This document shows positions 895-29,750 of a stretch of DNA of 32,000 bases, piece after piece. The stretch lies in NCBI RefSeq assembly GCF_000017845.1, contig NC_010546.1:3060001-3092000 (forward strand), written 5' to 3'. The notes under the pieces were generated by a model. That model worked only from the letters and a program-made list of their open reading frames with translations, was not told the origin of the DNA and searched no databases. Every line of letters begins with the position of its first letter. The stretch's first letter is position 1. Made by a program: the position numbers and the translations under genes. This DNA is from Crocosphaera subtropica ATCC 51142. Lineage in GTDB: Bacteria > Cyanobacteriota > Cyanobacteriia > Cyanobacteriales > Microcystaceae.

Positions 895-918
895 AGACTT
901 GGACTAGAGGGAGTTTGG

Positions 919-1940: not shown

Positions 1941-1950
1941 TATGAGTCTG

Positions 1951-1978
1951 ACCAATCACTGATAACTGGTCACTGCTT
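1951..1978. repeat. STRR-like heptanucleotide tandem tract (ACCAATC ACTGATA ACTGGTC ACTGCTT)
   Basis: The tract was read directly from the sequence and lies immediately upstream of dusA. Its 20-mer TCACTGATAACTGGTCACTG recurs at 12125-12144 with one mismatch. Confidence 0.7.
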
Positions 1979-2010
1979 TAATAGTTTGCTATTACCAGTA
2001 TTGTATCAAT

Positions 2011-2463: not shown

Positions 2464-2479
2464 AATATCTTTCAAACTT

Positions 2480-2995: not shown

Positions 2996-3076
2996 TTTTT
3001 CCTTACCATTATTATATAGAAAATAAAAGAAATTTTATCATAAACATTCACCTGCTACTTATAACAGCATTATTTT

Positions 3077-4270: not shown

Positions 4271-4396
4271 AGGTTAAGCTTGTCTCGGGAACGTTCTCTC
4301 TAGGATAATGAATTTTTGCTGAGATGACAGCCTAGATAGTTAGTCCGTTAATGCTGTTGAAGGGTACAGAGAAACAAGATTTTTTTGCTTATTATT

Positions 4397-8742: not shown

Positions 8743-8815
<73 letters not shown>

Positions 8816-8946
8816 TAAAGCACTCATTTATTCAGTGCTTAACAAGCATAGCAAATATTTTTAAGCAGTGCAAGAGGTTTGGTAAAAAATTTTTACCTTA
8901 GTTAGAAGATAAAAACATCTCAGGATAAAATGCTAAAATGTGATCC

Positions 8947-9027
8947 ATAGCTAGGGGTGTCTGTGGAATTAGGCTGAGAAAAACCCTTAGAACCTGAGAC
9001 TGGGTAATACCAGCGTAGGGAAGCTGT
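8947..9027 (+). promoter_or_regulatory. TPP (THI-box) riboswitch in the thiC leader
   Basis: Conserved THI-box elements are present: GGGGTG...CTGAGA...ACCCTT..GAACCTGA....GGTAATACCAGCGTAGGGAA. A P1 pairing AUAGCU/AGCUGU can be drawn. The element ends 19 nt before the thiC ATG. Confidence 0.9.
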
Positions 9028-9033
9028 TTATAG

Positions 9034-10425
<1,392 letters not shown>

Positions 10426-13561: not shown

Positions 13562-13580
13562 ACTCAACTAACAACTTGAA

Positions 13581-16500
13581 TTAACCAAAGACAAAGTGAT
13601 CAGCACTCAAACTACCAGCACTCACACCAAGCAGTTTGGCTAACTCATCGTCTCCAGTGGCAATTAAGGTATCGCCGTTTTCTTCACTGATCGTTAAACC
13701 GTCAAAGCCAATGCCCAAGCCAGCAATGCCCAAAACATCCGCTTCTAGGTCAAAGTCAGTGATGGTGTTGGCTGCTTCAGGAATCTCAGCCACAGCAAGC
13801 CAGAAACTGTCAGACCCTGCACCCCCTGTAACAACGTTATTACCCCCTAAGAGGAAGAAACTATCATCCCCTGCACCGGCAAAGGCACGGTCATTATGAC
13901 CGAGGATAAACGTATCATCGCCGGATTGTCCATAGAGACGGTTGCCTCCATTGCCCGCAACGGTATCAATGAAGTCATCTCCTGAGCCACCGAATAAGAT
14001 GTCATCAGTGCCATCAAACCCAGGAGTAACTCCTGCATCAAAGGTTTCCCCATCAAGACTACCAAACACAGGAAGCATCGATTCAGGGGAACTCTCTTCT
14101 AGCGTCGCCGTTAGCTCGTAGTCACCGTAAAATACCCCAATTTCTGGGAACGTCCAACCGCTACCGCTTCTGACCACATTGGGATCATAGTTACGGTTGC
14201 CTAGTAGACTGACACCGACATAGTAAGTCCCTGCTGTTTCAGCAGTAAACTCCAGATAGGGATCACGGGAGAATTCTTCCCCAGGGGCTGCACCATCACT
14301 ATTAGCAGCAAGTTCATTACCCTGTGCATCAAATAACCGTAATTCTGTATCCGTTTTCTGGGGCATTTCTACCAGTGCTGGATAGACGGTAAAACCATTG
14401 TTAGCAGGGGTGGGTTCCCCAGTATCAATATCGAGGGAAACCGTTTGTCCTGCTTCTAAAGTGATGGCGTACATATCCACATCTTCGGCAAACCCCAACC
14501 ATCTCTCAGGAGTTTGATTACTAGGCCCAGTAGCGGCAAGGGTTCCGTTAATGGAAACTGTGGGGGTTTGAGAACTTAAACCAAGGGCATTAGCTTCTGC
14601 TATGGTACTATTCCCCTCAATTTCTTCTGAAACACTGGCTTGATCTGGGGTATCTGCGATCGCAAAACTGGCTTGAGGGATTGCTTGGTTAATGAGATAA
14701 TTTTCACTGGGATCTAGACTAAAGAGTGCGGTTTCGCTGCCTTCTTCTACCCCATCATCCAGAACAGGGAGATTAATGGTGGCTTCCCGTTCAGTAATAT
14801 TGAAGTCAAAACCATCATCTCGCACCTCAGCAATGGTGCCACCCGCTGTATCAATAGCATCTAAATTAAATTCATCGAGGGCATCGGCACTGACACTGAC
14901 AGTTAAACCCTCTTCTGGGGGTGGGGAACTGAGGGTAAAGGTATGAACACTAACCGTTTCTTCTGACTCAATGAGGCTGGCTGGTGAACCTGTTAATCCC
15001 ACTTGAATCTTGGAGTCTGGGTTATCGGCAATGGTCAAGGTAATTTCACTGGCATCTGAATCAATGGTGTAACCTTCCTGGGGTTGTAGAGCAAAGGTTA
15101 TGTCAAACAGTCCCTCTTGTACCGTCACGGGATTATCGATCACCGTTAACTCATCAAACACTGACACGGTGATAGTGGCGGTTTGGTCAGTGATGGTGAA
15201 GAAAAAGCCCGATTCATCGCTATTGGGAACAGGGAAGTTGCCTCCTTCGATTTCTGCTTCAAGAACGGAAAACTGACCAAGAATACTACCGAGAAATGGC
15301 TCATCTTCGCTGTCCACAAATACGGTTATGCCCCCTTCTGGTGGTGCTTCGGATAGGGTAAAGCTAAAAGTGGTTTCCGTTTCTTCTGACTCAATGAGGA
15401 AAGTTTCACTCACCGTTAATCCCACTTCGGGAACAACATCTCCCCCACTTGGCGGTGGGACATCAGCCAGAGAGTCGTAGTAGGTTACCTCTGTGGTTCC
15501 GATTTCTGGGGCAACCTCGTAGCCTTCCCCTGGTTGTAGAAAGAAAGTGACATCTTCGGGCCCATCGGTTTCTAATCCTTCAAAGAGATCATAAAACCCA
15601 GTTGTATCGTGCTGGAAAGCGATAACAGGGTTACGATTCGCTCTTTCGAGATTAACAGTCATAGTGGGTTCATCGATGCGGAGTCGAATACCCGTAGGAA
15701 TACCTTCCTCGTTATAATATGCCCCTAGAGACTGTCCACCAACGGTGGTAGGAAGCTCATCTTGACCGAGATAGGAAACATAATCGAACAAATTAACATC
15801 GCTATTGAGAACAAATTCAATGCCCTCTTCCGGAATTTCTCCCTCGGCTTGAATGGTGAAGTTAACCCCAGAAATACCCCCAAGTTCCACAAATTCCACC
15901 ACTGCACTGGTAAAGTTCCCTTCGCTGTCTACGGTGGTGGGATTCGCACCCAAAGAAAGGGTAGGAGGATTGATAACATTGGGATTACTGACAGGGGGGG
16001 TGGGGGTTCCTGTTTTGCGTGGATTATCTTCTGTCAATAGGTTGATTTCCAGTTCATATAGACCGAAAGCAACTCGGTTGTCATCTCCTGAAGCCGGAAT
16101 CTCAATATCATAAGCAAGATCCTCACGGCCGTAAGATACGGGCGTGGCTGAGAGATAGGACGAAACCCCCACATAGTAGATGCCATCTTCTGAGGCGGTA
16201 AATTCTAAGTAAGTATCTGTTTCACTTTCAACGACGGTTCCATCATCCCGAAAAGCCCCTTCACCGACACCAAAAAGCTTATCGGGGGCAGCCGGGGTAT
16301 AAAGACCCGAAGAAATGAGTCGATTTCCTTCCGCGTCAAAAATAGCGACCCCTGAGAGATTACCAAATCGATTATTTACGTCACGATTCCCTTCTACTTC
16401 AAAGGTTTCGACGGCGATGGTATCTCCTGCGGTTAATTCTAATTTATAGAGGTCTACATCTTCGTTGTAGTCAACATAGGTGTAAGTGCCATCTTCGTTG

Positions 16501-18953
16501 AGATAGCGGTTGCCGATGTCAAAGTAGATAGAATCAACAGCAAAGAAGGAAGGGTTTTCGGGGGTAATTTGGGTGTCTGTGGCAAGGGAAACAATGTCAT
16601 TGGGTTCGGTCACAACCCCTCGCGGAATATCTGACCGTGTATCGACTAAGTTAAAGCTACCACCACTGTAATCTTCTACAATCTCATACCCATCTCCAGG
16701 GGCTAAACTAAAACTAGCGGTTTCTCCTGTTTCTGTTTCGCCATCATCGGCAATGGGCAAGTTTACCAATGTCGTATATTGAGTCATTCGCAGGTCAAAC
16801 CCACCATCACGGACTGCTTCGATGGTTCCTCCGTCCACGGAAATCCCTGCTAAGTCAAACTCGCTTAAGTTAGGCGCATCGACCGACACCACTAACCCGC
16901 CTTCGGGAATAGTGCCATTAGTTACATTAAAGGCATGAGCGGATACGGTTACCTCATCTTCGATCAAGTAACTAGGGCCAGTAAATAAACTTACTTGTAG
17001 AACATCCAACTCAGGCGGTTCTGGTGGTGGGGGTTCAGAAATCTCACTCAATTGACTCTCATCATCGACAAACAATACCGTAGAAGCAGCAGCATTGGGA
17101 TCAATGGTATAGTCCCCTAACGTTCCTACGTCTGCCAAATCTTCTGGTGCTACTTCAGTTTTCAACTCAAATACGGCTTCTACTAACCCATCAAAGGTTT
17201 CGGGTAGAAAGGTATCGGGTTCAGGATTATCAAATACGTCAATAGTAAAGGTTCCAAAGGTCGCCCCTTCATCAATGGTCAGGTAAAACCCTGAATTATC
17301 GAAGCTTGTGCCAAATAATGCAGGTTTAATGTTTTCCGTAATGGGATTAAAAGCAAACCCAGGTAAATCTAAACGATTGACAATTTGCTCAACATTACTA
17401 TCGACAAACACCTTTAAACCGCCTTCAGGGGCAGGTCCATCCAGGTCAAAGCGCACGGTCAAGGCGTTGCCTAAATCTTCAACCAAGGCGTTGAGATCGC
17501 CGTCAAAGTTAGTTGATGTTGATAAGCTTACTTGTGTTATAGTTTGATTTTTAATTGTGTCAACAATGGTCAAAGTCCCTGTTTGCGCTTCGGGATCAAC
17601 TTCGTAACCTTCTCCTGCTTCGAGGGAAAAGGTAGCGGTTTCTTCCCCTTCGATTTCTCCGTCATCAGCTACAGGTAAGGTTATCTGAGCGGTTTGTTCG
17701 GTTAAAGTCACCTCAAAGGTATCGTCAGCGATCCCTTGTCTATAGGGAGGCAAAATATCCCGAACCAGGTTATCGCGAGAAAAGCCGTTAATTAATTCAA
17801 TGTAGGTTAAGTCATCTTGAGGGGAATACCACATATTTGAGCGATATCCCAAAGTTTGCCCCCTGTGAGCATACCAAAAACGAATAGCAGATTCGAGGGT
17901 TCCTACTCCTAACCCATAGGAATCATAATTATTGTTGTCAATGGTAGGGATAACAGCAAGCATTTGCTCAAGGGTTTCGGGTTCTAGTAGTCGATCCTCT
18001 TTAAACAAACTACGGGCAAAGGTATCTAAATCTTGGGCATTAGAAATCATCGCCCCTGCTGTCCACGCCCAAGACAAACCTGCCGGGGTAATATTATCTA
18101 ACGTGCCATTGCTATCAAAATCCCAATAACCATTAACAAAGCCCCCAGGAACCGCTTCTTCTTGAGCAAAAAAGGTATTTTCCAGATTCAAAGGGGTGAG
18201 AATACGATTGCGGATTTCTTGGGCAATATTATTCCCTGTGGCTGCTTCAACAATTAATCCTGCTAAGATATAGTTCGTATTGGAATACTGCCAAGACTCC
18301 CCAGGCTCAAAGACAGGTTCTGCCCCATCAATTAAGTCCATTAATTGCTCTGGTTCCCACGGCCGCAAAAATACGGTCGGGTTGGTGGCTGCTTGGGTAA
18401 AGAGTATGTCTAAATAGTCGGCAATACCGCTTGTATGCTGCAATATTTGCCTGATGGTAATCTCTTGAGCATTGGGAATATCGGCGGTTAAGCTTTCGGG
18501 TAACCAAGTGGTCAAAGTATCTTCTAAGCTTAAAGAACCTTCTTCAACTAACTGTAAAACAGTGGTAGCCACAAAGGTTTTGGTAATACTGCCAATTTGA
18601 AAGCGATCGCTTGGTTGCAAAGGAATATTATTTTCTAAGTCAGCCACCCCACTGGTCCCATACCAACTGCCAAAAGGGGCAACAATGGCAACCACAGCCC
18701 CTGGTACTTCAGGGGTGCGAGTTCCATCTAATGCTGTCTGTAACTGTTGCTGAAGTTCGTCTTCTAGAGTAATGATCCCCCCTTCGATTTGTGCTTTACT
18801 CAGGTCAAACTCGGATAAGTTAGGAGCATTTAGCCTTACTACTATCCCATCAGGGGGAGGCGGTTCACTGAGACTGAGGGTCAGTAAAGAAAGGGTGGCT
18901 TCAGATTCAATTAAGCGTTCGGGTTCAAGGATTAAGCTGACTTTAGGTTCCAT
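13581..18953 (-). CDS. Giant (1790 aa) acidic RTX-type exoprotein with a beta-lactamase-like domain inserted in a Calx-beta-like domain, further Calx-beta-like domains, two PPC domains and a C-terminal Ca-binding repeat module
   Basis: The serine hydrolase domain has SxxK (S122-I-T-K), Y-S-N (Y223) and H-R-G (H363). Calx-beta-like signatures such as LPVADDGEIEGEETATFSL recur. PPC signatures are TEPND...DVDLYKLELTAGDT and DVDMYAITLEAGQT. The C-terminus has GGSGDDFID, GQSGDDTFI, GAGDDSFFL and GGAGSDSFW and ends in DHFVFG. I found no Cys codon. Confidence 0.9.
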   Translation of the reverse strand: MEPKVSLILEPERLIESEATLSLLTLSLSEPPPPDGIVVRLNAPNLSEFDLSKAQIEGGIITLEDELQQQLQTALDGTRTPEVPGAVVAIVAPFGSWYGTSGVADLENNIPLQPSDRFQIGSITKTFVATTVLQLVEEGSLSLEDTLTTWLPESLTADIPNAQEITIRQILQHTSGIADYLDILFTQAATNPTVFLRPWEPEQLMDLIDGAEPVFEPGESWQYSNTNYILAGLIVEAATGNNIAQEIRNRILTPLNLENTFFAQEEAVPGGFVNGYWDFDSNGTLDNITPAGLSWAWTAGAMISNAQDLDTFARSLFKEDRLLEPETLEQMLAVIPTIDNNNYDSYGLGVGTLESAIRFWYAHRGQTLGYRSNMWYSPQDDLTYIELINGFSRDNLVRDILPPYRQGIADDTFEVTLTEQTAQITLPVADDGEIEGEETATFSLEAGEGYEVDPEAQTGTLTIVDTIKNQTITQVSLSTSTNFDGDLNALVEDLGNALTVRFDLDGPAPEGGLKVFVDSNVEQIVNRLDLPGFAFNPITENIKPALFGTSFDNSGFYLTIDEGATFGTFTIDVFDNPEPDTFLPETFDGLVEAVFELKTEVAPEDLADVGTLGDYTIDPNAAASTVLFVDDESQLSEISEPPPPEPPELDVLQVSLFTGPSYLIEDEVTVSAHAFNVTNGTIPEGGLVVSVDAPNLSEFDLAGISVDGGTIEAVRDGGFDLRMTQYTTLVNLPIADDGETETGETASFSLAPGDGYEIVEDYSGGSFNLVDTRSDIPRGVVTEPNDIVSLATDTQITPENPSFFAVDSIYFDIGNRYLNEDGTYTYVDYNEDVDLYKLELTAGDTIAVETFEVEGNRDVNNRFGNLSGVAIFDAEGNRLISSGLYTPAAPDKLFGVGEGAFRDDGTVVESETDTYLEFTASEDGIYYVGVSSYLSATPVSYGREDLAYDIEIPASGDDNRVAFGLYELEINLLTEDNPRKTGTPTPPVSNPNVINPPTLSLGANPTTVDSEGNFTSAVVEFVELGGISGVNFTIQAEGEIPEEGIEFVLNSDVNLFDYVSYLGQDELPTTVGGQSLGAYYNEEGIPTGIRLRIDEPTMTVNLERANRNPVIAFQHDTTGFYDLFEGLETDGPEDVTFFLQPGEGYEVAPEIGTTEVTYYDSLADVPPPSGGDVVPEVGLTVSETFLIESEETETTFSFTLSEAPPEGGITVFVDSEDEPFLGSILGQFSVLEAEIEGGNFPVPNSDESGFFFTITDQTATITVSVFDELTVIDNPVTVQEGLFDITFALQPQEGYTIDSDASEITLTIADNPDSKIQVGLTGSPASLIESEETVSVHTFTLSSPPPEEGLTVSVSADALDEFNLDAIDTAGGTIAEVRDDGFDFNITEREATINLPVLDDGVEEGSETALFSLDPSENYLINQAIPQASFAIADTPDQASVSEEIEGNSTIAEANALGLSSQTPTVSINGTLAATGPSNQTPERWLGFAEDVDMYAITLEAGQTVSLDIDTGEPTPANNGFTVYPALVEMPQKTDTELRLFDAQGNELAANSDGAAPGEEFSRDPYLEFTAETAGTYYVGVSLLGNRNYDPNVVRSGSGWTFPEIGVFYGDYELTATLEESSPESMLPVFGSLDGETFDAGVTPGFDGTDDILFGGSGDDFIDTVAGNGGNRLYGQSGDDTFILGHNDRAFAGAGDDSFFLLGGNNVVTGGAGSDSFWLAVAEIPEAANTITDFDLEADVLGIAGLGIGFDGLTISEENGDTLIATGDDELAKLLGVSAGSLSADHFVFG

Positions 18954-19186
18954 TATATTTGGGTAATAGAATTACTATTAAGAATATTTTTAGATAAATA
19001 AATGAAAATGAATATGAGATATTAGTAGCTAACCACAGGCTTTCCTTGCCTATTGTCTTCACCTCACTCAGTCATATTTACTCTTCAAAGACTTCTAAAG
19101 CCAATAACTGGCAGCAACACATCTATTTTAAGTAGAGGATGTTGACTTAAATCAGTTGAGAGACTCTCTCAACAAAATTTTTACGA

Positions 19187-19195
19187 AGTATATCA
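19187..19195 (-). promoter_or_regulatory. Candidate extended -10 (TGATATACT) for giant gene 1
   Basis: The element is conserved as TGATATAGT at 26436-26444 upstream of giant gene 2. The spacing to the shared palindrome is the same within 1 nt. Confidence 0.4.
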
Positions 19196-19257
19196 CACTC
19201 AATGATGGTTTGGAAAGGTTTTTTACATTTAATATGTGATGAATAGAGATTTGCATC

Positions 19258-19274
19258 TGTGCAAATTTTGCACA
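19258..19274. promoter_or_regulatory. 8-1-8 perfect palindrome TGTGCAAA-T-TTTGCACA (candidate transcription-factor site)
   Basis: The palindrome was read directly from the sequence. Its centre is about -60 from the predicted isiB start and about -86 from the predicted gene 1 start. A paralogous copy lies at 26508-26524. Confidence 0.5.
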
Positions 19275-19290
19275 AATCCCCTCTAGCATC

Positions 19291-19319
19291 TTGACAGTTA
19301 TTGAGAATTATTCTAAACT
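19291..19319 (+). promoter_or_regulatory. Sigma70-type isiB promoter (TTGACA-17 nt-TAAACT) with an embedded Fur-box-like 7-1-7 element
   Basis: TTGACA lies at 19291-19296 and TAAACT at 19314-19319. TGAGAAT-T-ATTCTAA (19302-19316) matches the Fur 7-1-7 consensus TGATAAT-N-ATTATCA at 11 of 14 positions. Confidence 0.55.
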
Positions 19320-19332
19320 AAATTGTATCTAC

Positions 19333-19347
19333 TGCAAATAATTTGCA
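19333..19347. promoter_or_regulatory. Perfect 7-1-7 palindrome TGCAAAT-A-ATTTGCA in the isiB leader (operator-like)
   Basis: The palindrome was read directly from the sequence. It lies at about +7 to +21 of the predicted transcript, 19 nt before the ATG. The same heptamer also occurs at 19249-19255 and 19260-19266. Confidence 0.5.
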
Positions 19348-19365
19348 ATAAATTGGAAAAAAAGC

Positions 19366-19878
19366 ATGAGTATGATCGGACTGTTTTACGGTACAGAAAC
19401 GGGAAAGACCGAAACCACCGCAGAAATGATTCAATCAGAACTAGGAGGGGATAAGGTTGTCGAACTAATGGATATTGCTGATTGTGAGGCGACGGACTTA
19501 GAGAAGTATGATTATTTAATCATCGGTTGTCCAACCTGGAACGTAGGAGAGCTACAAAGCGATTGGGAAAGCATTTATGATGATTTAGACACTATTGATT
19601 TTAAAGGCAAACAAGTCGCTTATTTTGGTACAGGGGATCAAATCGGCTATAGTGATAACTTTCAGGATGCGATGGGAATGCTCGAAGAGAAAATTAGTCA
19701 ATTGGGGGGAAAAACCGTCGGTCATTGGTCAGTAGATGGCTATGATTTTGATGACTCAAAAGCGGTGAAAAACGGTAAGTTTGTCGGTTTAGCTCTCGAT
19801 GAAGATAATCAGTCAGACTTGACCGAAGAACGTATTAAAACTTGGGTTGCTCAACTTAAACAAGAGTTTAACCTCTAA
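19366..19878 (+). CDS. isiB: Long-chain flavodoxin
   Basis: 170 aa. The FMN-binding start is IGLFYGTETGKTE. PTWNVGELQSDW, YFGTGDQIGYSDNFQDA and the long-chain insert are present. Confidence 0.95.
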   Translation: MSMIGLFYGTETGKTETTAEMIQSELGGDKVVELMDIADCEATDLEKYDYLIIGCPTWNVGELQSDWESIYDDLDTIDFKGKQVAYFGTGDQIGYSDNFQDAMGMLEEKISQLGGKTVGHWSVDGYDFDDSKAVKNGKFVGLALDEDNQSDLTEERIKTWVAQLKQEFNL

Positions 19879-19942
19879 TTGATGGCTATCAAGAAATTTT
19901 AAAGTTTTCTCGTTTGTTAGAATCCAATCCACTTGTTTGGAC

Positions 19943-19984
19943 ACTCCTCTGTTACAGTTTAAGATTAACAGAGGAGTTTCTTTT
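19943..19984 (+). terminator. Rho-independent terminator after isiB
   Basis: A perfect 12-bp stem ACTCCTCTGTTA / TAACAGAGGAGT with an 11-nt loop is followed by TTTCTTTT. The element abuts the stop of the convergent 96-aa ORF. Confidence 0.8.
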
Positions 19985-20273
19985 ACTTATATCTTTGATG
20001 AAATTGATTTAATAAGCTCTGAGTCGAAGGTATAAATTGATCTAGGTAATTTGATTTCACAACTTCAACCCTTTTTGAGTCAATTTTATGAGACATTTCG
20101 GGTTCCATTGGGGAAACGCAACATTTTCCTAAAAAATTGTGAAAATCATCAGCATCAGTGAATCTCGGCAAAATAGGTATTTTTCTATCAATATCCTCGA
20201 TTATTGCCTTGGTATGATAATAAGTTCTAAAGACTTCTCTAATTACGGGAAATGTTTCGAGTTTCATGATCAA
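19983..20273 (-). CDS. Hypothetical protein (96 aa), no recognisable family
   Basis: This is the only ORF of at least 60 aa in the 780-bp gap between isiB and giant gene 2. It has an ATG start and no signal peptide. Confidence 0.4.
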   Translation of the reverse strand: MIMKLETFPVIREVFRTYYHTKAIIEDIDRKIPILPRFTDADDFHNFLGKCCVSPMEPEMSHKIDSKRVEVVKSNYLDQFIPSTQSLLNQFHQRYK

Positions 20274-20491
20274 TAAAATACAAAATGTCTTCTTTTAATA
20301 TTGATTGAAATACTGATATCCCTACGCCACGGGTAAAAGTTGACGTTTCTGAGAACAGCGTTTCTGCTTATTCAATGTCTTCAATCAAATGGGCAGTGGT
20401 ATGGCTAAAAAATGTTTTAATAAACTAATTACAGTTTAAATTAATTAAGAAAACTTGTCAATAAGTTGTTTAAAAATTTGTATAACAGAAG

Positions 20492-20521
20492 CCCCAACGA
20501 ACTGCTTACGGTTCGTTGGGG
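20492..20521 (-). terminator. Strong GC-rich hairpin downstream of giant gene 2
   Basis: CCCCAACGAAC-8nt-GTTCGTTGGGG forms an 11-bp perfect stem about 140 nt after the stop at 20660. The U-tract is weak, so it could be a terminator or an RNA-stability element. Confidence 0.5.
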
Positions 20522-20659
20522 TCATTCCTATTTTGCTCAATGTTTGAAAAGATATAATAGTACAAAAATTAGTCAGGACATTTTTTATATCCGTAATTTG
20601 TCCTTCCGAGGAAAGAAAACAGGGAAAAATAATTCTCCCCTGCCCTCCATTATCTCGAA

Positions 20660-23600
20660 TTAACCAAAGACAAAGTGATCAGCACTTAAACTACCAGCAC
20701 TCACACCGAGTAGTTTGGCTAACTCATCGTCTCCTGTGGCAATTAAGGTATCACCGTTTTCTTCACTGATCGTTAAACCGTCAAAGCCAATGCCCAAGCC
20801 AGCAATGCCCAAGACATCCGCTTCTAGGTCAAAGTCAGTGATGGTGTTGGCTGCTTCAGGAATTTCACCAACAGCAAGCCAGAAACTGTCAGATCCTGCA
20901 CCCCCTGTAACAACGTTATCACCCCCTAAGAGGAAGAAACTATCATCTCCTGCACCGCCAAAGGCACGGTCATTATGACCCAGGATAAAGGTATCATCGC
21001 CGGATTGTCCATAGAGACGGTTGCCACCATTACCCGCAACGGTATCAATGAAGTCATCTCCTGCGCCACCGAATACGATGTCGTCAGTGCCATCAAAACC
21101 AGGGGTAACACCAGCATCAAACATTTCTCCGTCGAGGCTGCCAAACACAGGAAGCTCAACCACAGGAGGGGTATCATCAATGGTAAAAGACACATCAGAA
21201 GCATCAGGAGCAACTTCGTATTCTTCCCCGTTAACTAGGGAGAAGTTGAACGCTTCTAACCCTTCTCCTGGACCATCTTCAAATACAGAGAGAGTAATGC
21301 TGGCGTTGGAGTCAGTCAAAGTAACAAAGAAACTGCTGCCAATGCCATCGGCTGGAGTAGGTACGCCGTCAATACCGGTAGTTTCAAATAACGGTGTGCC
21401 ATTTTCATCAAATAGTGCAAATTCTCCGAGAGAGCCAGCCGTATCGCTAGTAACGAGAACTTCTAGACCCTCTTGAGGGATCTCACCATCAACCGCAAAG
21501 CCAAAGGTGAATTCTTCTCCTTCGGTGAGTTCGGTTTTGTCGATAGAGATGCCCACAGTGGGTCCGACACCAGGGCCACCATTACCATCAACTAACTCAA
21601 AACTACCCATATTGGCATCTGGGTTGACGGTGTAGTCTGAACCTTCGAGGTCTTCTAATAGTTCAAAATTGAAGGTAAAGGGATCTTCTTCAATGATGTC
21701 ATTGAAGGTGGGCAGAGTAATACTCGCAGTTTCTTCCGAGAGTATAAATTCAACAACAGTGGGTTGTGCTTCGTCAAAAAATGGTCCAAATGTCAGACCC
21801 TCAACACTAAAACTATCACCCAACTGGTCTAATAGGACATCAAGCTCTTTAACATCTAAGAAAACTGAGAGTCCACCAGAAACATAGTTACCCTCAGCAT
21901 CGAAGACTGCTTCAGGAACCTCGCCATCAACGGTAAAAGTGGCTGTAAAAGCAGCATTAGGATCTTCTTCTATGACCTGTTCAGGGGTAATGCTTAGACT
22001 AACTTCAGGTAGAGTCTGTCCATCCTCGATGGTGAAGTCTATAGAGCTTGCCACTGGATCGACTGCATAGCCTTCCCCTTCAGCTAGGGTATAGGTAAAG
22101 GTTTCAGTCCCTTCAACTTCATCATCTGGGAAAACAGGAACCGAGATAGTGGCGTTGGCTTCATCCATCCGGAAGAAGAAGCCACTGACATCGTTGTCTG
22201 TCCCAACAATTTCACCACCCGTTACTTGAACCCCTTCGACTTCCCCTGTGCGCGCATTGCCTTCAATATCGAATTCAGCAATAGCTCTTGCTACATTGCT
22301 ATCGAGGAAGACGGTTACGCCCCCTTCAGGAATTTCTCCTTGAGCGTTCAAGGACACTGTTAAAACGGTTTGTTCACTTTCAACCAGTGTTTCAGGTGTT
22401 GCGGTAACCCCAATGGTCGGGACATTACTAGGCAACTCCCCATCACTAACGGTGAAGGTGGCACTGTTAACCCCAGTTTCATCGAGGTTATAACCTTCCC
22501 CTTCAATTAAGGTCAAAGTGTACTCGGTATCCATTTCCTCAAAGATGTCATCGACTACGGGTAAGCGTAGGGTAGCATTGGCTTCGGTAATGGTGACTCG
22601 TTGTAGCAGTCTGAGAAAGTTTCCGTCTTCATCGGTAATAGTTGTACGAGAACCACTAGGAATGCTGATACCGACGTTATCTCCTCCATTGGAGGGATTA
22701 CTAATTTGAGTCCCTAATAAGAGGGGGTCGGTGGTTTCGAGAACCACTGTGGTGCCAGAGGCAGGAATGTCACCAATGGTGGTGAAGTTTAATTCTAATA
22801 CTGTGCCTTCGTCTTCTCTGAGTAGGGTGGGACTGCCACTCATGCTAACTACGGGTGGCTCTAGGACATCTTCGATGCTAAAGGTAACACTGGGTCGAGA
22901 AGAACGAACATTATAACTTTCCCCTTCGGCTAGGGCAAAAGTAAAGGTTTCAAGTCCTTCGGTTACATCATCGGAGAAGACAGGAACCGAGATAGTAGCG
23001 TTGGCTTGATCGATACGGAAGAAGAAGCCACTGACATCGTTGTCTGTCCCAACAATTTCACCACCCGTTACTTCGACCCCTTCGACTTCCCCTGTGCGCG
23101 CATTGCCTTCAATATCGAATTCAGCAATGGCTCTTGCCACATTGCTATCGAGGAAGACCTCTATACCCCCTTCAGGAATTTCTCCTCGAACGTCGAAGGT
23201 TAAGGTTAAGATGCTCGGCTCACTTTCGTAGAGGGTTCCAGGGGTAGCACGAACTCCGATGGTGGGGACTTCGTCTGGTATCATGCCATCACTAACGGTG
23301 AAGGTGGCACTGTTAACCCCAGTTTCATCGAGGTTATAACCTTCCCCTTCCACTAAGGTCAAAGTGTACTCGGTATCCATTTCCTCGAAGATGTCATCGA
23401 CTACGGGTAAGCGTAGGGTAGCATTGGCTTCGGTAATGGTGACTCGTTGTAGCAGTCTGAGAAAGTTTCCGTCTTCATCGGTAATAGTTGTACGAGAACC
23501 ACTAGGAATGCTGATACCGACGTTATCTCCTCCATTGGAGGGATTACTAATTTGAGTCCCTAATAAGAGGGGGTCGGTGGTTTCGAGAACCACTGTGGTG

Positions 23601-26116
23601 CCAGAGGCAGGAATGTCACCAATGGTGGTGAAGTTTAATTCTAATACTGTGCCTTCGTCTTCTCTGAGTAGGGTGGGACTGCCACTCATGCTGACTACGG
23701 GTGGCTCTAGGATATCTTCGATGGTGAAACTGATGCTTTTGCGGCCTTCTCTGACCTGATATCCTTCGCCGTCAAGCACTGTAAACGTGAAGTCTTCAGT
23801 GCCTTCAGTAACATCATCTTGAAAGACGGGTACTGTGATGGATGAAAACTCTTCGGTAACTCGGAAGAAGAAGCCACCGGCTGTCTCATTGGTGCCAACA
23901 ATGCTACCACCCACTACCACAGGTCCAGTGACCACAGTTTCATCTTCGGGTAAACGGGGGTTAGTTGCATTAACATCAAATTCGGCGATCGCCCTAGGGG
24001 GACCATCTACAAAGACAACTACGCCTTCAGGGGGAATCTCACCCCTTGTTCTAAAGTTAATAGTAATCGCTGTTTGTTCGCTTTCATAGAGGGTGCCAGG
24101 AGTTGAAGAGATTTCTACTCTTGGGCCAACACCACCCTCAACTCCATCAGTTAAGGTAAATGTGCCGGTGCTGGCTTCGCTGTTAATGGTGTAGCCTTCC
24201 CCTTCTACTAAAGTATAGGTATAGGTCGTGTCTGCTTCTTCAATGAGATCATCCAACACGGGAAGGGTAATACTAGCGTTGGGTTCAGTGATGGTAAAGC
24301 TGAAGTTACTCAGAAAACCATCTCCTGCGGCGGTAGGATCGGAGTTGCTTTCACTGGGATCTCCGTCTTCTAAGGAAAAGCGATCAAGCACTCCGCCAAC
24401 GATGAAGCCGTTATCGGGGTTAACAAAGCCGTTATCAAAGCGATAGAAGATGTTTCCTGTTTCTGAGTCGAAGCGAGTTTGCGCCACGGTGAACTGTTGC
24501 ATAATTCGAGCAACATCCCCTTCTAGGTTGACGGTGATGCCGTTTTCGGGAATCTCCCCATCCACGCTGAACTCCATTACCAACGCTGTACCTTCGGCTT
24601 CACTAATGACCTCTGGGGTGGTGCTGAAACTCACCACAGGGAAAGCAGGGACATCCCCATCCTCAATGGTTACATTGATAACACTGGCATCGGGATCAAT
24701 CTCATAGAGTTCCCCATCTTGTAAATTAAAGATGAGGGTTTCCTCTCCTTCAGCCACATCGTCTTGAAACACCGGAACGGAAATAGTCGCTGTAGGTTCA
24801 AAAATTCGGAAGAACACCGAGCCAGCTACCTCATCGGTGCCGACAATGTTGCCACCGGTGACAACGACCCCTTCTACCACTGTCTCATTTTCGGGTAACC
24901 GTGGGTTAGTGGCATTGACATCAAACTCGGCGATCGCCCTTGGGGGTCCTTGCAACTGCACCACCAAACCGTCAGCGGGAATATCTCCTTCCGTGGTAAA
25001 GGTAATTTCAAAAACGGTCTGTTCTGACTCAAGTAGGGTTGTGGGGGTGGCTGTCACCCCAACGGTGGGACTGGTGGCAGGGGTTACCCCATCGGTTACG
25101 GTAAACGTGCCACTGTTAGCGGTTTCGTCAACGGTGTAGCCGTCCCCTTCTACCAGGGTATAGGTGTAGGTGGTGTCTGCTTCTTGTAGGATGTCATCAG
25201 ACACCGGCAAGGTAATACTGGCGGTTGGCTCCGTGATGGTGAAGCTGAAGTTACTTAGGAAGCCTATACCTGCGGCCTCGGGGTCGGAGTTATCTTGAGC
25301 AGGGTCACCATCTTCTAGGGAGAAGACCTCAAGGGTTCCACCCACGAGTCCCGCCCCCGGTCCAAAGGAAGTGTCAAAGCGATAAAAGATGTTGCCCTCG
25401 TCAGTAACTCGGGTTTGAACCGCTCCGTCTCCATCGGGTGCCAGAAACTGTTGGAGAATTTCCGCCATATCCCCTTCTAAGAAAACGGTGATGCCGTCTT
25501 CGGGAATCTCCCCGTCCACGCTGAACTCCATTACCAACGCGGTACCGTCCGCTTCATTAATAACTGTTGGGGTGGTGCTGAAACTGACTACAGGTGGATC
25601 ACCGTCACCAATATCCGGTAACTGACTCACATCATCAGCAAATAACACTAGGCTAGTAGCTGCTGCTGGATCGATGGTATAGTCACTGATGCCTGTGATA
25701 TCGACTGCATCTTCGTCACTGACTTCATCTGCTGTTTTGACTGAGAAAGTGGCTTCGACTAAACCATCGAAGGTTTCGGGTAAAAAGCTATCAGGTTCGG
25801 CATTATCAAAAATGGGAATAGTAAAACTACCAAAGGTCGCTCCTTCGCTAATGGTTAACGCTATTCCAGAGTTATCAAAATCAGTTCTAATAGAGGCTGG
25901 ACTAATATTTTCCGTAACGGGGTTAAAGGCAAAGGTGGGTAAGTCGAGTCGGTTCAGAATTTGTTCGACATCGCTATCAATAAAAACCCTCAAACCCCCT
26001 TCAGGGGCGGGTTCATCGAGATCCAAACGAAGGGTTAAAGCTGTACCAAGGGTTTCAACGAGGGCGTTTAACGCACCATCAAAGTTGGTTGAAGTTGATA
26101 AACTAACTTGGGTCAT
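20660..26116 (-). CDS. Giant (1818 aa) acidic Calx-beta-like repeat exoprotein with a C-terminal RTX module
   Basis: More than 10 repeats carry Calx-beta-like signatures (SVPVFQDDVAEGEETLIFNL, LPVVDDIFEEMDTEYTLTL and similar). The C-terminal 164 aa are about 96% identical to gene 1, including DHFVFG. I found no Cys codon. Confidence 0.9.
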   Translation of the reverse strand: MTQVSLSTSTNFDGALNALVETLGTALTLRLDLDEPAPEGGLRVFIDSDVEQILNRLDLPTFAFNPVTENISPASIRTDFDNSGIALTISEGATFGSFTIPIFDNAEPDSFLPETFDGLVEATFSVKTADEVSDEDAVDITGISDYTIDPAAATSLVLFADDVSQLPDIGDGDPPVVSFSTTPTVINEADGTALVMEFSVDGEIPEDGITVFLEGDMAEILQQFLAPDGDGAVQTRVTDEGNIFYRFDTSFGPGAGLVGGTLEVFSLEDGDPAQDNSDPEAAGIGFLSNFSFTITEPTASITLPVSDDILQEADTTYTYTLVEGDGYTVDETANSGTFTVTDGVTPATSPTVGVTATPTTLLESEQTVFEITFTTEGDIPADGLVVQLQGPPRAIAEFDVNATNPRLPENETVVEGVVVTGGNIVGTDEVAGSVFFRIFEPTATISVPVFQDDVAEGEETLIFNLQDGELYEIDPDASVINVTIEDGDVPAFPVVSFSTTPEVISEAEGTALVMEFSVDGEIPENGITVNLEGDVARIMQQFTVAQTRFDSETGNIFYRFDNGFVNPDNGFIVGGVLDRFSLEDGDPSESNSDPTAAGDGFLSNFSFTITEPNASITLPVLDDLIEEADTTYTYTLVEGEGYTINSEASTGTFTLTDGVEGGVGPRVEISSTPGTLYESEQTAITINFRTRGEIPPEGVVVFVDGPPRAIAEFDVNATNPRLPEDETVVTGPVVVGGSIVGTNETAGGFFFRVTEEFSSITVPVFQDDVTEGTEDFTFTVLDGEGYQVREGRKSISFTIEDILEPPVVSMSGSPTLLREDEGTVLELNFTTIGDIPASGTTVVLETTDPLLLGTQISNPSNGGDNVGISIPSGSRTTITDEDGNFLRLLQRVTITEANATLRLPVVDDIFEEMDTEYTLTLVEGEGYNLDETGVNSATFTVSDGMIPDEVPTIGVRATPGTLYESEPSILTLTFDVRGEIPEGGIEVFLDSNVARAIAEFDIEGNARTGEVEGVEVTGGEIVGTDNDVSGFFFRIDQANATISVPVFSDDVTEGLETFTFALAEGESYNVRSSRPSVTFSIEDVLEPPVVSMSGSPTLLREDEGTVLELNFTTIGDIPASGTTVVLETTDPLLLGTQISNPSNGGDNVGISIPSGSRTTITDEDGNFLRLLQRVTITEANATLRLPVVDDIFEEMDTEYTLTLIEGEGYNLDETGVNSATFTVSDGELPSNVPTIGVTATPETLVESEQTVLTVSLNAQGEIPEGGVTVFLDSNVARAIAEFDIEGNARTGEVEGVQVTGGEIVGTDNDVSGFFFRMDEANATISVPVFPDDEVEGTETFTYTLAEGEGYAVDPVASSIDFTIEDGQTLPEVSLSITPEQVIEEDPNAAFTATFTVDGEVPEAVFDAEGNYVSGGLSVFLDVKELDVLLDQLGDSFSVEGLTFGPFFDEAQPTVVEFILSEETASITLPTFNDIIEEDPFTFNFELLEDLEGSDYTVNPDANMGSFELVDGNGGPGVGPTVGISIDKTELTEGEEFTFGFAVDGEIPQEGLEVLVTSDTAGSLGEFALFDENGTPLFETTGIDGVPTPADGIGSSFFVTLTDSNASITLSVFEDGPGEGLEAFNFSLVNGEEYEVAPDASDVSFTIDDTPPVVELPVFGSLDGEMFDAGVTPGFDGTDDIVFGGAGDDFIDTVAGNGGNRLYGQSGDDTFILGHNDRAFGGAGDDSFFLLGGDNVVTGGAGSDSFWLAVGEIPEAANTITDFDLEADVLGIAGLGIGFDGLTISEENGDTLIATGDDELAKLLGVSAGSLSADHFVFG
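22022..23713. repeat. 2 x 846-bp (282-aa) tandem duplication inside giant gene 2
   Basis: The period of 846 nt follows from the identical antisense ORFs at 22518-22709 and 23364-23555. Segment 22439-22877 is about 99% identical to 23285-23723. The other half of each unit is clearly more diverged. An older duplication of about 954 bp links roughly 24548 and 25502. Confidence 0.85.
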
Positions 26117-26435
26117 TTTTTTATTAGTGCAAAATTATCTTTAATTTGTTGATGGTTGAGTGTTGCTTTAGAATTGGATTGTTCAGGCAATACTCAAAAA
26201 ATCTGAGACAGATTGGACTCTGTTGTCAACTAAGAGTAAAAATAGTTATTAACTGTTGCCACTAATTAGACATTGCTAATTAACTGTTTTACTCTCAATG
26301 GGGAAAATCCGAGGAAAGCGAGATTGGCTTTATAGCAACCTCTGTTGGGATGACAGAGAGAAGTGGGATGATTTGGATTAGAGAATTGTCAGTCCACACA
26401 TCTGAGAATTACTCTCAATAATTTTTCCTTGATGA

Positions 26436-26444
26436 ACTATATCA
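26436..26444 (-). promoter_or_regulatory. Candidate extended -10 (TGATATAGT) for giant gene 2
   Basis: This is the paralogue of the element at 19187-19195. It sits within a roughly 150-bp stretch that aligns by eye between the two upstream regions. Confidence 0.35.
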
Positions 26445-26507
26445 CATACATTTCTTTTTGGCTAGGATTTTTATATTTTAGTCAGATGAGGTTATGGAGT
26501 CTGTACT

Positions 26508-26524
26508 TGTGCAAATTTTACACA
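26508..26524. promoter_or_regulatory. Paralogous copy of the palindrome (TGTGCAAA-T-TTTACACA)
   Basis: It matches 19258-19274 at 16 of 17 positions. It lies about 77 nt upstream of the conserved -10-like element, in gene 2 orientation. Confidence 0.45.
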
Positions 26525-26579
26525 GTGTTAGGTGATATGAAATCTCTTTGAATACCATATTTATAAACAAAAAATACTA

Positions 26580-29500
26580 TTAAATGTCTATTTCCTTTCG
26601 TTGTTTAGTTGAATCAACCAAAGAAGGTTGAACAGATAGTTGAATCACATTAATTCGCTCTGCTAAACTCGCTACTGTCGGTTTTTCAAACAGAGTACGC
26701 AAGGGTAAATCTAAAGAAAGCGTTTGACGTAAACGAGAATTAATACGAGTCGCTAAAAGAGAATTACCCCCTAATTCAAAAAAGTTATCATCAACACTCA
26801 AACTATCAATTTTAAGAATTTCTCGCCAAATGTCTGCAATTTTCCTTTCAATGGTATTACGAGGGGCAATGACTTCCTTTTTACTCAACTGACTTAAAGC
26901 AAGCAACGCCTTTCGATCTAGCTTGCCATTAGGCGTTAACGGGAAACTTTCTAAGGTCACAAAAGCACTGGGAACCCCATAACTGGGTAATTTTTGCTCT
27001 AAAAACTGACGCAGTTTCTGAGAAATGTCTTCTGTTTGAGACGTTTGAATATAAGCAATCAGTCGGCGATCGCCTGATTCAAATTCTTTAGCAAGAACCA
27101 CACAGGCAGTGATATCGGGATGCTGGCTTAAAATTGTTTCTATTTCCCCCAACTCAAGACGAACCCCACGAATTTTTACCTGATTATCAATTCTCCCTAA
27201 ATATTCTAAATTGCCATCTTCTCGGTATCTAACAAGATCCCCTGTTCGATATAACCGTTCTCCCGGTTGAAAAGGGTTGGGAACAAAAGAGTGGGCTGTT
27301 AAGTCGGGTCGATTGAGGTATCCTCTAGCTAGTCCTTCTCCCCCTAAATATAGTTCCCCTGCGACTCCGACAGGCAGTAACTTCTGTTGGGCATTGAGAA
27401 CATAAACTTGAATATTATCAATAGGTTTGCCAATGGGAACGGAGTAGTCATCGGGAAGACAAGTCCAGGCGGTAACATCGATCGCTGCTTCGGTAGGACC
27501 ATAAAGATTGTGTAATTCAGCCTTTACGGTTTGGAAAAAGCGATTTTTTAAGTCCACAGATAAGGCTTCCCCACTACAAATAACCCGTTTCACGGAGTGA
27601 CACTGAGATGCGTTTGCTTCTTCGAGGAAAACTTGAAGCATAGACGGGACAAAGTGGACAGTAGTAATGTTTTGCTCAATGATTAAATTGGCCAGATAAC
27701 CACTATCTTGATGTCCCCCAGGTTTTGCTACCACCAAACAAGCCCCATTTAACAGCGTCCAAAGAAACTCCCACACAGACACATCAAAGGTGTAAGGGGT
27801 TTTTTGTAAAACACGGTCATCAGGGGTTAAATTATAAGCCTTCTGCATCCAATTTAAGCGATTTAACACGCCTCGATAGGTATTAACGACTCCTTTGGGG
27901 TTTCCTGTTGAACCTGATGTGTAAAGGGCATAAATGCTATTATTTGGCGTGGTTTGAGGTGTAAGATTGGTCTTCGGATATTGGGAGAGTTTAAAGTAAT
28001 CTCTGTTTAAATGAATCAGGGTTTCAACGGGACAGTTAGAAAAATTTTGATCCGTGAGCAAGATAGAGCTTTGAGTATCATGAAGGATAAACTTAATGCG
28101 TTCTAAAGGGTAAGTTGGTTCAATGGGAACATACGCTCCTCCTGCCTTAAGAATGGCTAAAATAGCAATTACCATCTCTAAAGACCGTTCTAAGCAAATA
28201 CCCACTAAAGTTTCTGGTTTTACCCCTAAACTCTGTAAATGATGGGCCAATTGGTTGGCTTGGCTGTTCAGTTCTTGATAAGTTAATTCTTGATTGTCAA
28301 ACGTAACAGCAATATGATTAGGGGTTTTCTCAACTTGTCTTTCAAACAGTTGAGGAATGTAAAGCTCCCTGCTTCCTGCTCCCTGCTCCCTCTGCTCCCT
28401 GCTCCATACTCCCTGCTGTTGTTCCGGTAATAAGGGTATCTGCCACAATAGTTGTTGAGGATTTTCTATAATGTGGGTTAATAGAGTTTGAAAATGTGCT
28501 AATAAACGATTAATCACTGCATCAGAAAAGCGATCGCAATGATATTTCATCTTAATTGATAATTCGCTTCCCCCTCCTACTAAAATCGTTAAGGGTAGAC
28601 TGGTCCATTCCGTAGACTTAACGCTTTCGATGGTCAATGTTTCGCTGAGTTGAGCCACCGAGGGATCAACAGGATAATTTTCAAACACCAGAATTGTGTC
28701 AAATAAAGGCGTACCTGGGGGTAAATCACTGTTTTTCTGAATTTCTAGTAAGGATACATATTCATACTGCGAGGATTCTCCTTGTTCAACTTGTAGCTGT
28801 TTTAACCAAGGAATTAGCTTTGCTTGGGGAGGAACCTGAACCCGCACGGGAAGGGTATTAATAAATAACCCCACCATTGAATTGATTCCTTCTAGACTGG
28901 CTGAACGTCCGGAACCCGTTGCGCCAAAAATAATATCATCTTCACCGCTATAATAACTTAATAATAATGCCAACGCTCCTCTAATTACGGTATTTAAGGT
29001 TAATTCTTGTTGCTGTGCCAAAGATTTTAAAGCAGTGGTGGTTTGAGGAGATAAGGCGATTTCTTGCTCTGCTTGTGAGCTATTTTCTGCCAAAATACCG
29101 CTTTTTCCTGGAACGTTCCAACTGGTAGGTGTGGTAAACCCTTTTAATTTCTGTTTCCAAAACGTCTTAGCAACTGTTTCATCTTGTTGCTGTAACCAAC
29201 TAATATAGTCACCGTAGGGACGAGGATGATTAAGGGATAAATTACCATCCCCATGATACTGTTGAAAGACCTCTTTAACCACTAATCCCGATGACCACCC
29301 ATCTAGAATTAAGTGATGTTGTGTCCAAACTAAATAATAACGATTTTTTGCTAAATAAATCAACTTTAGACGTATTTGAGGCGGATTTTTTAAATCAAAA
29401 TCCCGTTTTCGCTCTTTTTCTAAAAATTCTTGTAACTTTTGTTCTTGTTCTTCGGGAGAAATATCTCGCCAGTCCTGTTCTTCCCAAGGTAACTTAACCT

Positions 29501-29750
29501 CACGATACACCGCTTGAAATGGGCGATCGCGTTTTTCCCAATGAAAAGAGACACGGAAGGGTTGATGTCTAGCAATAATAGTTTTCCAAGCTTGTTTAAA
29601 CCGAGGAATATTTAAAGCACCCACTAAGGTCAAACATAGTTGAGGTTGATAAACCCCAGAATGAGGAGTTAAAAGAGTATGGAATAAAATGCCCTGTTGT
29701 AGAGGGGAAAGGGGATAAATATCTTCAATATTTTTTTTCTTATCTATCAT
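26580..29750 (-). CDS. Single-module non-ribosomal peptide synthetase (C-A-T), with no TE/R release domain
   Basis: C domain: YPLSPLQQGILFH and HHLILDGWS. A domain: LYTSGSTGNPKG, FDVSVWE, NLYGPTE, GELYLGGEGLARGY, YRTGDL, VKIRGVRLELGEIE and NGKLDRKAL. T domain: FFELGGNSLLA. The protein ends about 45 aa after the T domain. Confidence 0.93.
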   Translation of the reverse strand: MIDKKKNIEDIYPLSPLQQGILFHTLLTPHSGVYQPQLCLTLVGALNIPRFKQAWKTIIARHQPFRVSFHWEKRDRPFQAVYREVKLPWEEQDWRDISPEEQEQKLQEFLEKERKRDFDLKNPPQIRLKLIYLAKNRYYLVWTQHHLILDGWSSGLVVKEVFQQYHGDGNLSLNHPRPYGDYISWLQQQDETVAKTFWKQKLKGFTTPTSWNVPGKSGILAENSSQAEQEIALSPQTTTALKSLAQQQELTLNTVIRGALALLLSYYSGEDDIIFGATGSGRSASLEGINSMVGLFINTLPVRVQVPPQAKLIPWLKQLQVEQGESSQYEYVSLLEIQKNSDLPPGTPLFDTILVFENYPVDPSVAQLSETLTIESVKSTEWTSLPLTILVGGGSELSIKMKYHCDRFSDAVINRLLAHFQTLLTHIIENPQQLLWQIPLLPEQQQGVWSREQREQGAGSRELYIPQLFERQVEKTPNHIAVTFDNQELTYQELNSQANQLAHHLQSLGVKPETLVGICLERSLEMVIAILAILKAGGAYVPIEPTYPLERIKFILHDTQSSILLTDQNFSNCPVETLIHLNRDYFKLSQYPKTNLTPQTTPNNSIYALYTSGSTGNPKGVVNTYRGVLNRLNWMQKAYNLTPDDRVLQKTPYTFDVSVWEFLWTLLNGACLVVAKPGGHQDSGYLANLIIEQNITTVHFVPSMLQVFLEEANASQCHSVKRVICSGEALSVDLKNRFFQTVKAELHNLYGPTEAAIDVTAWTCLPDDYSVPIGKPIDNIQVYVLNAQQKLLPVGVAGELYLGGEGLARGYLNRPDLTAHSFVPNPFQPGERLYRTGDLVRYREDGNLEYLGRIDNQVKIRGVRLELGEIETILSQHPDITACVVLAKEFESGDRRLIAYIQTSQTEDISQKLRQFLEQKLPSYGVPSAFVTLESFPLTPNGKLDRKALLALSQLSKKEVIAPRNTIERKIADIWREILKIDSLSVDDNFFELGGNSLLATRINSRLRQTLSLDLPLRTLFEKPTVASLAERINVIQLSVQPSLVDSTKQRKEIDI
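28364..28414. repeat. Heptanucleotide tandem repeat (coding strand AGGGAGC, about 7 units plus 2 nt, 51 nt in total) in the NRPS C-A linker
   Basis: The plus strand reads GCTCCCT GCTTCCT GCTCCCT GCTCCCT CT GCTCCCT GCTCCAT ACTCCCT. It is translated in frame as GVWSREQREQGAGSREL. Confidence 0.8.

Follow-up and report, generated by a model that had tools for sequence, protein, structure and literature searches.

A duplicated candidate promoter module with an odd-centred palindrome and Fur-like boxes upstream of two giant RTX-type exoprotein genes in Crocosphaera subtropica

Do two giant genes of the unicellular cyanobacterium Crocosphaera subtropica ATCC 51142 share a regulatory module, and does this module tie them to the neighbouring flavodoxin gene isiB? 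The question is raised by a stretch of 32,000 nucleotides (contig NC_010546.1, positions 3,060,001 to 3,092,000), hereafter called the window, in which all coordinates given below are counted unless another sequence is named. Gene 1 (13581-18953, reverse strand) encodes a protein of 1790 residues with a beta-lactamase-type serine hydrolase, PPC and RTX repeats. Gene 2 (20660-26116, reverse strand) encodes a protein of 1818 residues with Calx-beta and RTX repeats. The isiB gene (isiB/fldA, 19366-19878, forward strand), a classic Fur target, codes for a long-chain flavodoxin of 170 residues and is divergent from gene 1. It had been proposed, in what is called here the original prediction, that both giant genes are preceded by a duplicated module, that a palindrome of this module is shared with the isiB promoter as a Crp/Fnr-type activator site, and that the giant genes may belong to the isiB stress regulon.

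The best explanation, taken as a whole, is that a single sigma-70-type promoter module, with a distal operator and a proximal Fur-like box, exists here in two diverged, paralogous copies of ~155 bp, and we give this composite reading an even chance of being correct. Read along the gene strand, the module would begin with an odd-centred palindrome of 17 bp (about -86/-87) and continue with an A-rich tract, a weak -35, an extended -10, and an inverted repeat (+7 to +28), and it would drive both giant RTX-type exoprotein genes. Iron-loaded Fur would bind the proximal repeat and block transcription under iron sufficiency, and the giant genes and isiB would thereby be members of the same iron-stress regulon, each by way of its own Fur box. 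The distal palindrome would be reserved for a second, dimeric regulator.

The upstream regions of the giant genes

The upstream regions of the two giant genes align on the gene strand (blastn) with 103 of 157 columns identical (66%, E 5e-13), which bears out the homology of about 150 bp first seen by eye. Copy 1, upstream of gene 1, spans positions 19125-19274 and copy 2, upstream of gene 2, positions 26371-26524 (both reverse strand); the latter starts 56 nt past the stop codon of a non-ribosomal peptide synthetase (NRPS) gene. The first base of the alignment is the first base of the palindrome, and its last base is found ~55 nt beyond the predicted start site. Beyond the module, blastn returned no alignment between the remaining leader sequences of the two copies.

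The promoter scan calls TTTCCA-18-(TG)A-TATACT for gene 1 and TAGCCA-17-(TG)A-TATAGT for gene 2, at aligned positions and with an upstream TG in each. The weak -35 hexamers (TTTCCA, 19211-19216, and TAGCCA, 26459-26464) and the extended -10 elements (TGATATACT, 19187-19195, and TGATATAGT, 26436-26444) are all on the reverse strand, the latter within a -10-like block TGTGATATA(C/G)TTC present in both copies, of which TGTGATATA is identical at 9/9 positions. An A-rich tract, putatively UP-element-like, forms a further conserved block of the alignment (AAATGTAAAAAA in copy 1, 19219-19230, just upstream of the -35; AAATATAAAAAT in copy 2, 26467-26478; both reverse strand). The extended -10 announced by the original prediction, TGATATA(C/G)T on the gene strand, is thus found in both copies: each combines TGn, a hexamer with A2 and T6, and a spaced -35-like hexamer, and an element of the form TGnTATA(C/G)T could fire without a good -35. 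The counts of promoter matches do not exceed the shuffle expectation, and these calls are to be taken as consensus matches. All start sites are predicted ones, set 7 nt downstream of the -10. They are placed at ~19180 for gene 1 and ~26429 for gene 2, with leaders of 227 and 313 nt, in agreement with the long leaders (~230 and 310 nt) anticipated earlier, and the palindrome centre stands 75-76 nt from the -10 centre.

The TGTGATATA(C/G)TTC block could alternatively be a Crp-type site itself, and not a -10. It matches TGTGA-N6-TCACA at 8/10 positions in both copies (19182-19197 and 26431-26446), and this is the sole occurrence of the canonical CRP spacing in either upstream region. However, we estimate that chance alone would give ~0.7 matches of this quality (8/10) in the regions concerned, no -10-like hexamer follows downstream at a class-I or class-II distance, and the extended -10 reading suits both copies. 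A CRP role for this block is therefore considered highly improbable, and the block is treated below as the candidate -10 of both promoters.

The distal palindrome and its candidate regulators

Both palindromes are located exactly where the original prediction had placed them. Copy 1, TGTGCAAATTTTGCACA (19258-19274), is a perfect 8-1-8 palindrome; divided as TGTGC-AAATTTT-GCACA it has a 5-7-5 layout, with its symmetry axis on T19266. In copy 2, TGTGCAAATTTTACACA (26508-26524), seven of the eight arm pairs are kept, with one mismatch. The centres are positioned at -86 and -87 from the predicted starts of gene 1 and gene 2, respectively, and the first copy is centred at -60 from the predicted isiB start, as had been estimated. 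The motif is written TGTGYAAANTTTRCACA, and these two palindromes are the only TGTG-N9-CACA sites of the window. The window has five perfect palindromes whose arms measure 8 or more and whose spacer does not exceed 3, against 2.8 expected, and two of them belong to the gene 1 upstream region, 85 bp apart. TGCAAA/TTTGCA hexamers are rarer in the window than expected (12 vs ~20); the interval 19250-19347 contains five of the 12, and the region upstream of gene 2 another two. The isiB leader contains a second TGCAAA-type palindrome, TGCAAATAATTTGCA (19333-19347), 74 bp away from that of copy 1 and with a half-site spacing of 3 vs 1 bp; its left half alone is conserved in relatives. An isolated palindrome half-site, ATTAGTGCAAAATT (26123-26136), is also observed 7-20 nt upstream of the gene 2 start codon.

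The palindrome and the -10-like element had been described as two blocks standing out above a 60-70% background. Both blocks are present, but the palindrome block, conserved at 16/17 positions, is not significant over the 66% background (column shuffle P = 0.22). What is improbable by chance is the palindromy, not the block conservation. The similarity of the two modules might accordingly reflect shared ancestry only, by segmental duplication or gene conversion, with palindromes devoid of any function of their own. Such a relic would suit a locus built of layers of different age (93.6% identity over the 3' 502 nt of the giant genes, 72.5% in an internal/N-terminal block, 66% in the promoter), the unremarkable conservation of the block, and the distant homologues that lack the palindrome. 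Yet non-coding DNA has stayed at 66% identity beside a leader that cannot be aligned, the first homologous base is also the first base of a perfect palindrome, chance would hardly put two perfect palindromes into one spacer of 412 bp, and neither copy has lost its aligned extended -10. Ancestry alone is an unlikely account of these observations. The distal palindrome is probably the operator of a second, dimeric regulator, as far as its symmetry and position indicate.

The regulator first put forward was an activator of the Crp/Fnr family (IdiB-like), acting from a class-I position at isiB (-60) and on gene 1, with the second copy serving gene 2. The palindrome shares with CRP and FNR sites, including those of E. 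coli CRP and SyCRP1, the outer TGTG...CACA, the dyad symmetry and the location upstream of a promoter. Its half-sites TGTGC/GCACA resemble TGTGA/TCACA, its centre is indeed at -60 from the predicted isiB start, the five hexamers of 19250-19347 cluster around the isiB promoter, and the neighbouring TGCAAA palindrome is in the isiB leader. However, the sites of CRP (TGTGA-N6-TCACA), FNR (TTGAT-N4-ATCAA) and NtcA (GTA-N8-TAC) are even-centred. The 5-7-5 palindrome has its axis on a base pair, an argument that draws partly on general knowledge; it differs by one extra central base pair and by C/G instead of A/T at position 5. A scan of the upstream regions with the CRP, FNR and NtcA patterns did not match it. 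Moreover, the two TGCAAA palindromes disagree in half-site spacing, and -86/-87 is not a canonical class-I position; sites of class-I and class-II activators are centred at -41.5, -61.5, -71.5 and so on.

The isiB promoters of relatives also bear on this question. The core promoter of isiB called by the promoter scan, TTGACA-17-TAAACT (19291-19319, forward strand), contains in its spacer and -10 a Fur box, TTGAGAATTATTCTAAA (19301-19317), so that the promoter reads TTGACA-gtta-TTGAGAATTATTCTAAA-ct. No position of this box differs between the window and its two closest relatives with isiB, L001 (ENA ERZ23499148, SRR15216809; 89% flavodoxin identity) and L003 (85%), and the sequence upstream of the -35 diverges. 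In the alignment of the three genomes, conservation begins abruptly at CTTGACA, and the stretch of the palindrome is a gap in L001 and L003. The palindrome is thus no part of the conserved isiB promoter, contrary to what had been supposed. Because this promoter is near-consensus, isiB would need no class-I activator, and with its embedded Fur box it has the design of a repressed promoter, not of an activated one. A Crp/Fnr-type role for the distal palindrome is quite unlikely on this evidence, and a dimeric regulator of another kind is preferred.

How the palindrome came to stand beside isiB is suggested by gene order. In L001 (positions 1-5839, against 13581-29750 of the window), the order is NRPS (forward), a second flavodoxin of 174 residues (forward), isiB (forward), an open reading frame (ORF) of 94 residues (reverse), and the C-terminus of a giant gene (reverse); 85% identity to the window is seen for both the NRPS and the small ORF. 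The window differs from L001 by an inversion of the isiB-to-giant-gene block, which left isiB beside gene 1 and the NRPS beside gene 2. In the order that preceded this inversion, the two giant genes may have pointed away from each other, their modules meeting back to back at the palindrome. In L003 and in a further relative, L006, the place of gene 1 is taken by feoA and isiA, respectively. Since the isiB neighbourhood is lineage-specific, by synteny as well as by the isiB alignment, the palindrome appears to move with the giant-gene module; it would belong to that module, and its adjacency to isiB would be the outcome of a lineage-specific rearrangement.

An odd centre is a usual trait of 7-1-7 boxes of the Fur family and of helix-turn-helix operators of 17 bp. 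Each half-site of the distal palindrome, however, agrees with the Fur consensus at only 2/7 positions. It has the same 17-bp length and central base pair as the lambda-type and TetR-type operators of dimeric helix-turn-helix repressors, and its half-site GTG(C/T)AAA resembles the GalR and PurR half-sites of the LacI/GalR type (GTGTAAAC, GCAAAC). LacI-family operators differ, however, by a usually central CG step. The window contains no gene for a LacI/GalR-type or a lambda-/TetR-type regulator, and the literature yielded no published cyanobacterial motif matching the palindrome among those compared (HLR1, RppA, Rre1, RexT, ChlR, SufR, FurA, NtcA and CRP).

Other identities were considered and rejected. 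None of the RpaB HLR1, SufR, ChlR, RexT, NtcA or LexA motifs fits the palindrome. It is ruled out as an intrinsic terminator of the NRPS gene, having no T-run and a weak stem, and as a MITE or other mobile element: terminal inverted repeats are absent, and blastn found no further copies in the window.

The palindromes might also act at the RNA level. Transcription would start upstream of the module, by read-through from the NRPS gene in the case of gene 2, and the palindromes would be leader hairpins affecting stability or processing. In this respect, every arm substitution between the copies is a transition that leaves a G-U wobble pair on the gene strand, good folding is seen in the 5' region of gene 1 (z -3.2 in its proximal and -3.0 in its distal part), and the NRPS gene is immediately followed, on the same strand, by gene 2. 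But copy 2 folds no better than shuffled sequences (z +0.6 and -1.4), leaving no fold common to both copies (z -3.2 in copy 1, +0.6 in copy 2), and a one-base centre means that the arms must open to form a loop. Three wobble-compatible transitions arise by chance in about 1 case in 8. Gene 1 has no convincing promoter upstream of the palindrome, except for a -10-like string within the isiB Fur box, and no Rfam family is matched in either giant-gene upstream region. An RNA element is very unlikely by this account, and the reading as DNA operators is retained.

Outside the window, an exact-palindrome scan covered 185,579 species genomes. The matches listed, at least 120, are dispersed over unrelated phyla at about the chance rate, and one of them is cyanobacterial. 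This match, L098 (Chroococcidiopsis sp. FACHB-1243, NZ_JACJQX010000034.1), is an identical 20-mer, TGTGCAAATTTTGCACAAAT, within positions 1950-2100 of that contig. Its centre is 42 nt upstream of the -35 of a TTGACA-17-(TGTG)TAGTAT promoter, which puts it near -77, a single helical turn away from -86/-87. The 20-mer has three TTTGCAA-type elements (TTTTGCAAAA, TTTGCAAG and ATTTGCAAAT) around it and precedes an operon of sugar C-methyltransferase, nucleotidyltransferase and PIG-L genes. The stretch around it has no ORF over 2.2 kb and contains TGTCAAC four times at 1784-1950. One cyanobacterial match among the at least 120 listed equals the chance expectation, and the Chroococcidiopsis match is a lead, not evidence. 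It is on account of this single further case that one may speculate on a wider role, in which the 17-bp TGTG(C/T)AAA-W-TTTGCACA, together with TGCAAA/TTTGCA elements, would be the operator of a regulator conserved across distant cyanobacteria, controlling genes for cell-surface or secreted products from a site some eight helical turns upstream of their extended -10 promoters; this extension is doubtful. A metagenome scan for the palindrome followed by N50-70 and GTGATATA gave six matches, all in unrelated sequences and at about the chance rate. Plasmids searched with the module and a 30-mer (blastn) gave nothing cyanobacterial, and the homologues recovered for the C-terminal part of the giant genes are all contig-end fragments.

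Fur-like boxes and the iron link

A second inverted repeat, proximal to the promoter, was overlooked in the original prediction. In copy 1, it is a perfect 9-1-9 palindrome, GTTGAGAGA-C-TCTCTCAAC (19155-19173), at +7 to +25 of the predicted start, with a Fur-box-like TTGAGA-N5-TCTCAA. In copy 2, ATTGAGAGTAATTCTCAGA (gene strand, 26401-26419) is found at +10 to +28 and matches TGATAAT-N-ATTATCA at 11/14 positions. It also aligns with the isiB Fur box in both orientations (blastn). In the leader of gene 1, the consensus scan adds one more 7-1-7 site of the classical Fur-like type, TGAAAATGAATATGA (19003-19017).

The Anabaena FurA consensus is AAATAAATTCTCAATAAAT (PMC4005646). The isiB box matches it at 15/19 positions, and the classical 7-1-7 consensus at 11/14; the proximal repeats of the giant genes match the FurA consensus at 12-13/19 positions (gene 1 12/19). 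The Fur boxes of Synechocystis are concentrated between -100 and +50 relative to start sites and share a 21-23-nt palindromic motif with a single central base (PMC8634477). The isiB box, in the spacer and -10, and the proximal repeats of the giant genes, at +7 to +28 of the predicted starts, fall within this interval. They are odd-centred, AT-rich inverted repeats, as cyanobacterial Fur boxes are, and the proximal repeats have TTGAGA/TCTCAA half-sites as in the isiB box. The gene 1 copy differs in being more G/C-substituted (8/14 to the 7-1-7 consensus, 12/19 to FurA), and its consensus fit is the weakest.

With the classical 7-1-7 consensus and at most three mismatches, six sites are found in the window, three of them here: 26403-26417 (gene 2), 19302-19316 (isiB) and 19003-19017 (gene 1 leader). 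Boxes of iron genes in relatives include TTGAGATAATATCTTAA, in the feoA-isiB interval of L003, and TTGATAAAAATTTTCAA, which in L006 precedes isiA, and a motif, TTGAKA-N5-TYTYAA, was derived from the sites upstream of isiB, feoA and isiA in relatives. Allowing one mismatch, it is matched 12 times in the window when each strand is counted separately; shuffled sequences give 3.3 +/- 1.8, and none of 100 shuffles reaches 12. Four sites are matched on both strands, and isiB, gene 1 and gene 2 account for three of the four. In a distant cyanobacterium, L138, a 632-residue beta-lactamase-domain homologue of the N-terminal part of gene 1 follows a small ORF with RTX repeats. A Fur-like box, TTGATAAAACTTTTCAA (positions 5925-5941 of L138), is found 60 nt upstream of the start of this homologue; it is nearly the same as the isiA box of L006 (positions 4907-4923 there) and different from the giant-gene boxes of the window.

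From these features we infer that Fur may bind the proximal repeats. Membership of the giant genes in the isiB stress regulon, as originally suggested, is upheld in part: the iron link is plausible, and would most likely run through the promoter-proximal Fur-like boxes, not through the distal palindrome. The Neisseria proteins FrpA and FrpC offer a parallel, being RTX-repeat exoproteins whose promoters have a putative Fur site. The giant proteins of C. subtropica differ from them in phylum and in architecture (serine hydrolase, PPC, Calx-beta), and their iron regulation is a predicted one.

Several points weigh against the composite reading. The start sites of the giant genes are predictions, and with two copies constraint and shared ancestry are not cleanly separable, the more so as the palindrome block does not stand out from its background. 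The weakest member of the set is the proximal palindrome of gene 1 (8/14 to the classical Fur consensus), and differences between the two proximal repeats are as frequent as in the background. The upstream DNA of more distant homologues of the N-terminal part (67-73% identity; L138, L139, L140 and L141) has neither the palindrome nor the module. The orthologous giant-gene promoter of a close relative was not recovered; assemblies tend to break at these genes, and the L001 contig ends inside the giant gene.

Mosaic genes, neighbouring features and significance

The two giant proteins are mosaics. Their last 178 residues are 90% identical, and the N-terminus of the gene 2 protein aligns with the gene 1 protein from residue 472 on, with 48% identity. 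At the DNA level, the 3' 502 nt (13575-14076 and 20654-21155) are 93.6% identical, up to 6 nt beyond the stop codons, and the other parts of the genes are far more diverged; this suggests that the RTX/C-terminal secretion region has recently undergone gene conversion. The beginning of gene 2, with 9 nt upstream of its ATG (25751-26125), is homologous to the interior of gene 1 (17175-17549, from about residue 468 on) at 72.5%. Either gene 2 has lost a serine-hydrolase N-terminal region or gene 1 has gained one, the same promoter module being retained by both. A G+C-rich hairpin, CCCCAACGAAC-N8-GTTCGTTGGGG (20492-20521), follows the stop codon of gene 2 at a distance of 140 nt and probably serves as a terminator, either for gene 2 or in both directions.

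Among the neighbours, the NRPS gene (26580-29750, reverse strand) encodes a single module (C-A-T). The flavodoxin has its best named relatives in Crocosphaera sp. (85% identity) and in Microcystaceae metagenome-assembled genomes (79%). A conserved ORF of 96 residues (19983-20273, reverse strand) has no Pfam match and a counterpart, 85% identical, beside isiB in L001; judged by this conservation, it would code for a small conserved protein.

Further away, the 700-bp stretch 5108-5857 is without an ORF of at least 80 residues. A perfect palindrome, AATTATTGACAATAATT (5340-5356), overlaps there a Fur/Zur-like 7-1-7 match, and a symmetric TTGAGAAAATTTCTCTA site (5841-5857) lies just inside the 3' end of a HAD gene. 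This stretch could be an unannotated metal-regulated small gene or small RNA. A tRNA gene (8743-8815, reverse strand) and a TPP riboswitch (8943-9038, forward strand) are both upstream of thiC, and a perfect palindrome, GGTAAAAAATTTTTACC (8881-8897), is found between them.

The feature is of an ordinary kind, a duplicated promoter with operator sites, and leaves current concepts unchanged. If confirmed, the module would be a natural example of a promoter duplicated and retained separately from the coding sequence that it drives, and the orphan palindrome would be a candidate handle for a new cyanobacterial regulator. Giant RTX-type exoproteins would likewise join flavodoxin in the Fur-controlled iron-stress response, which would fit the idea of surface proteins that help cells cope with scarce iron.

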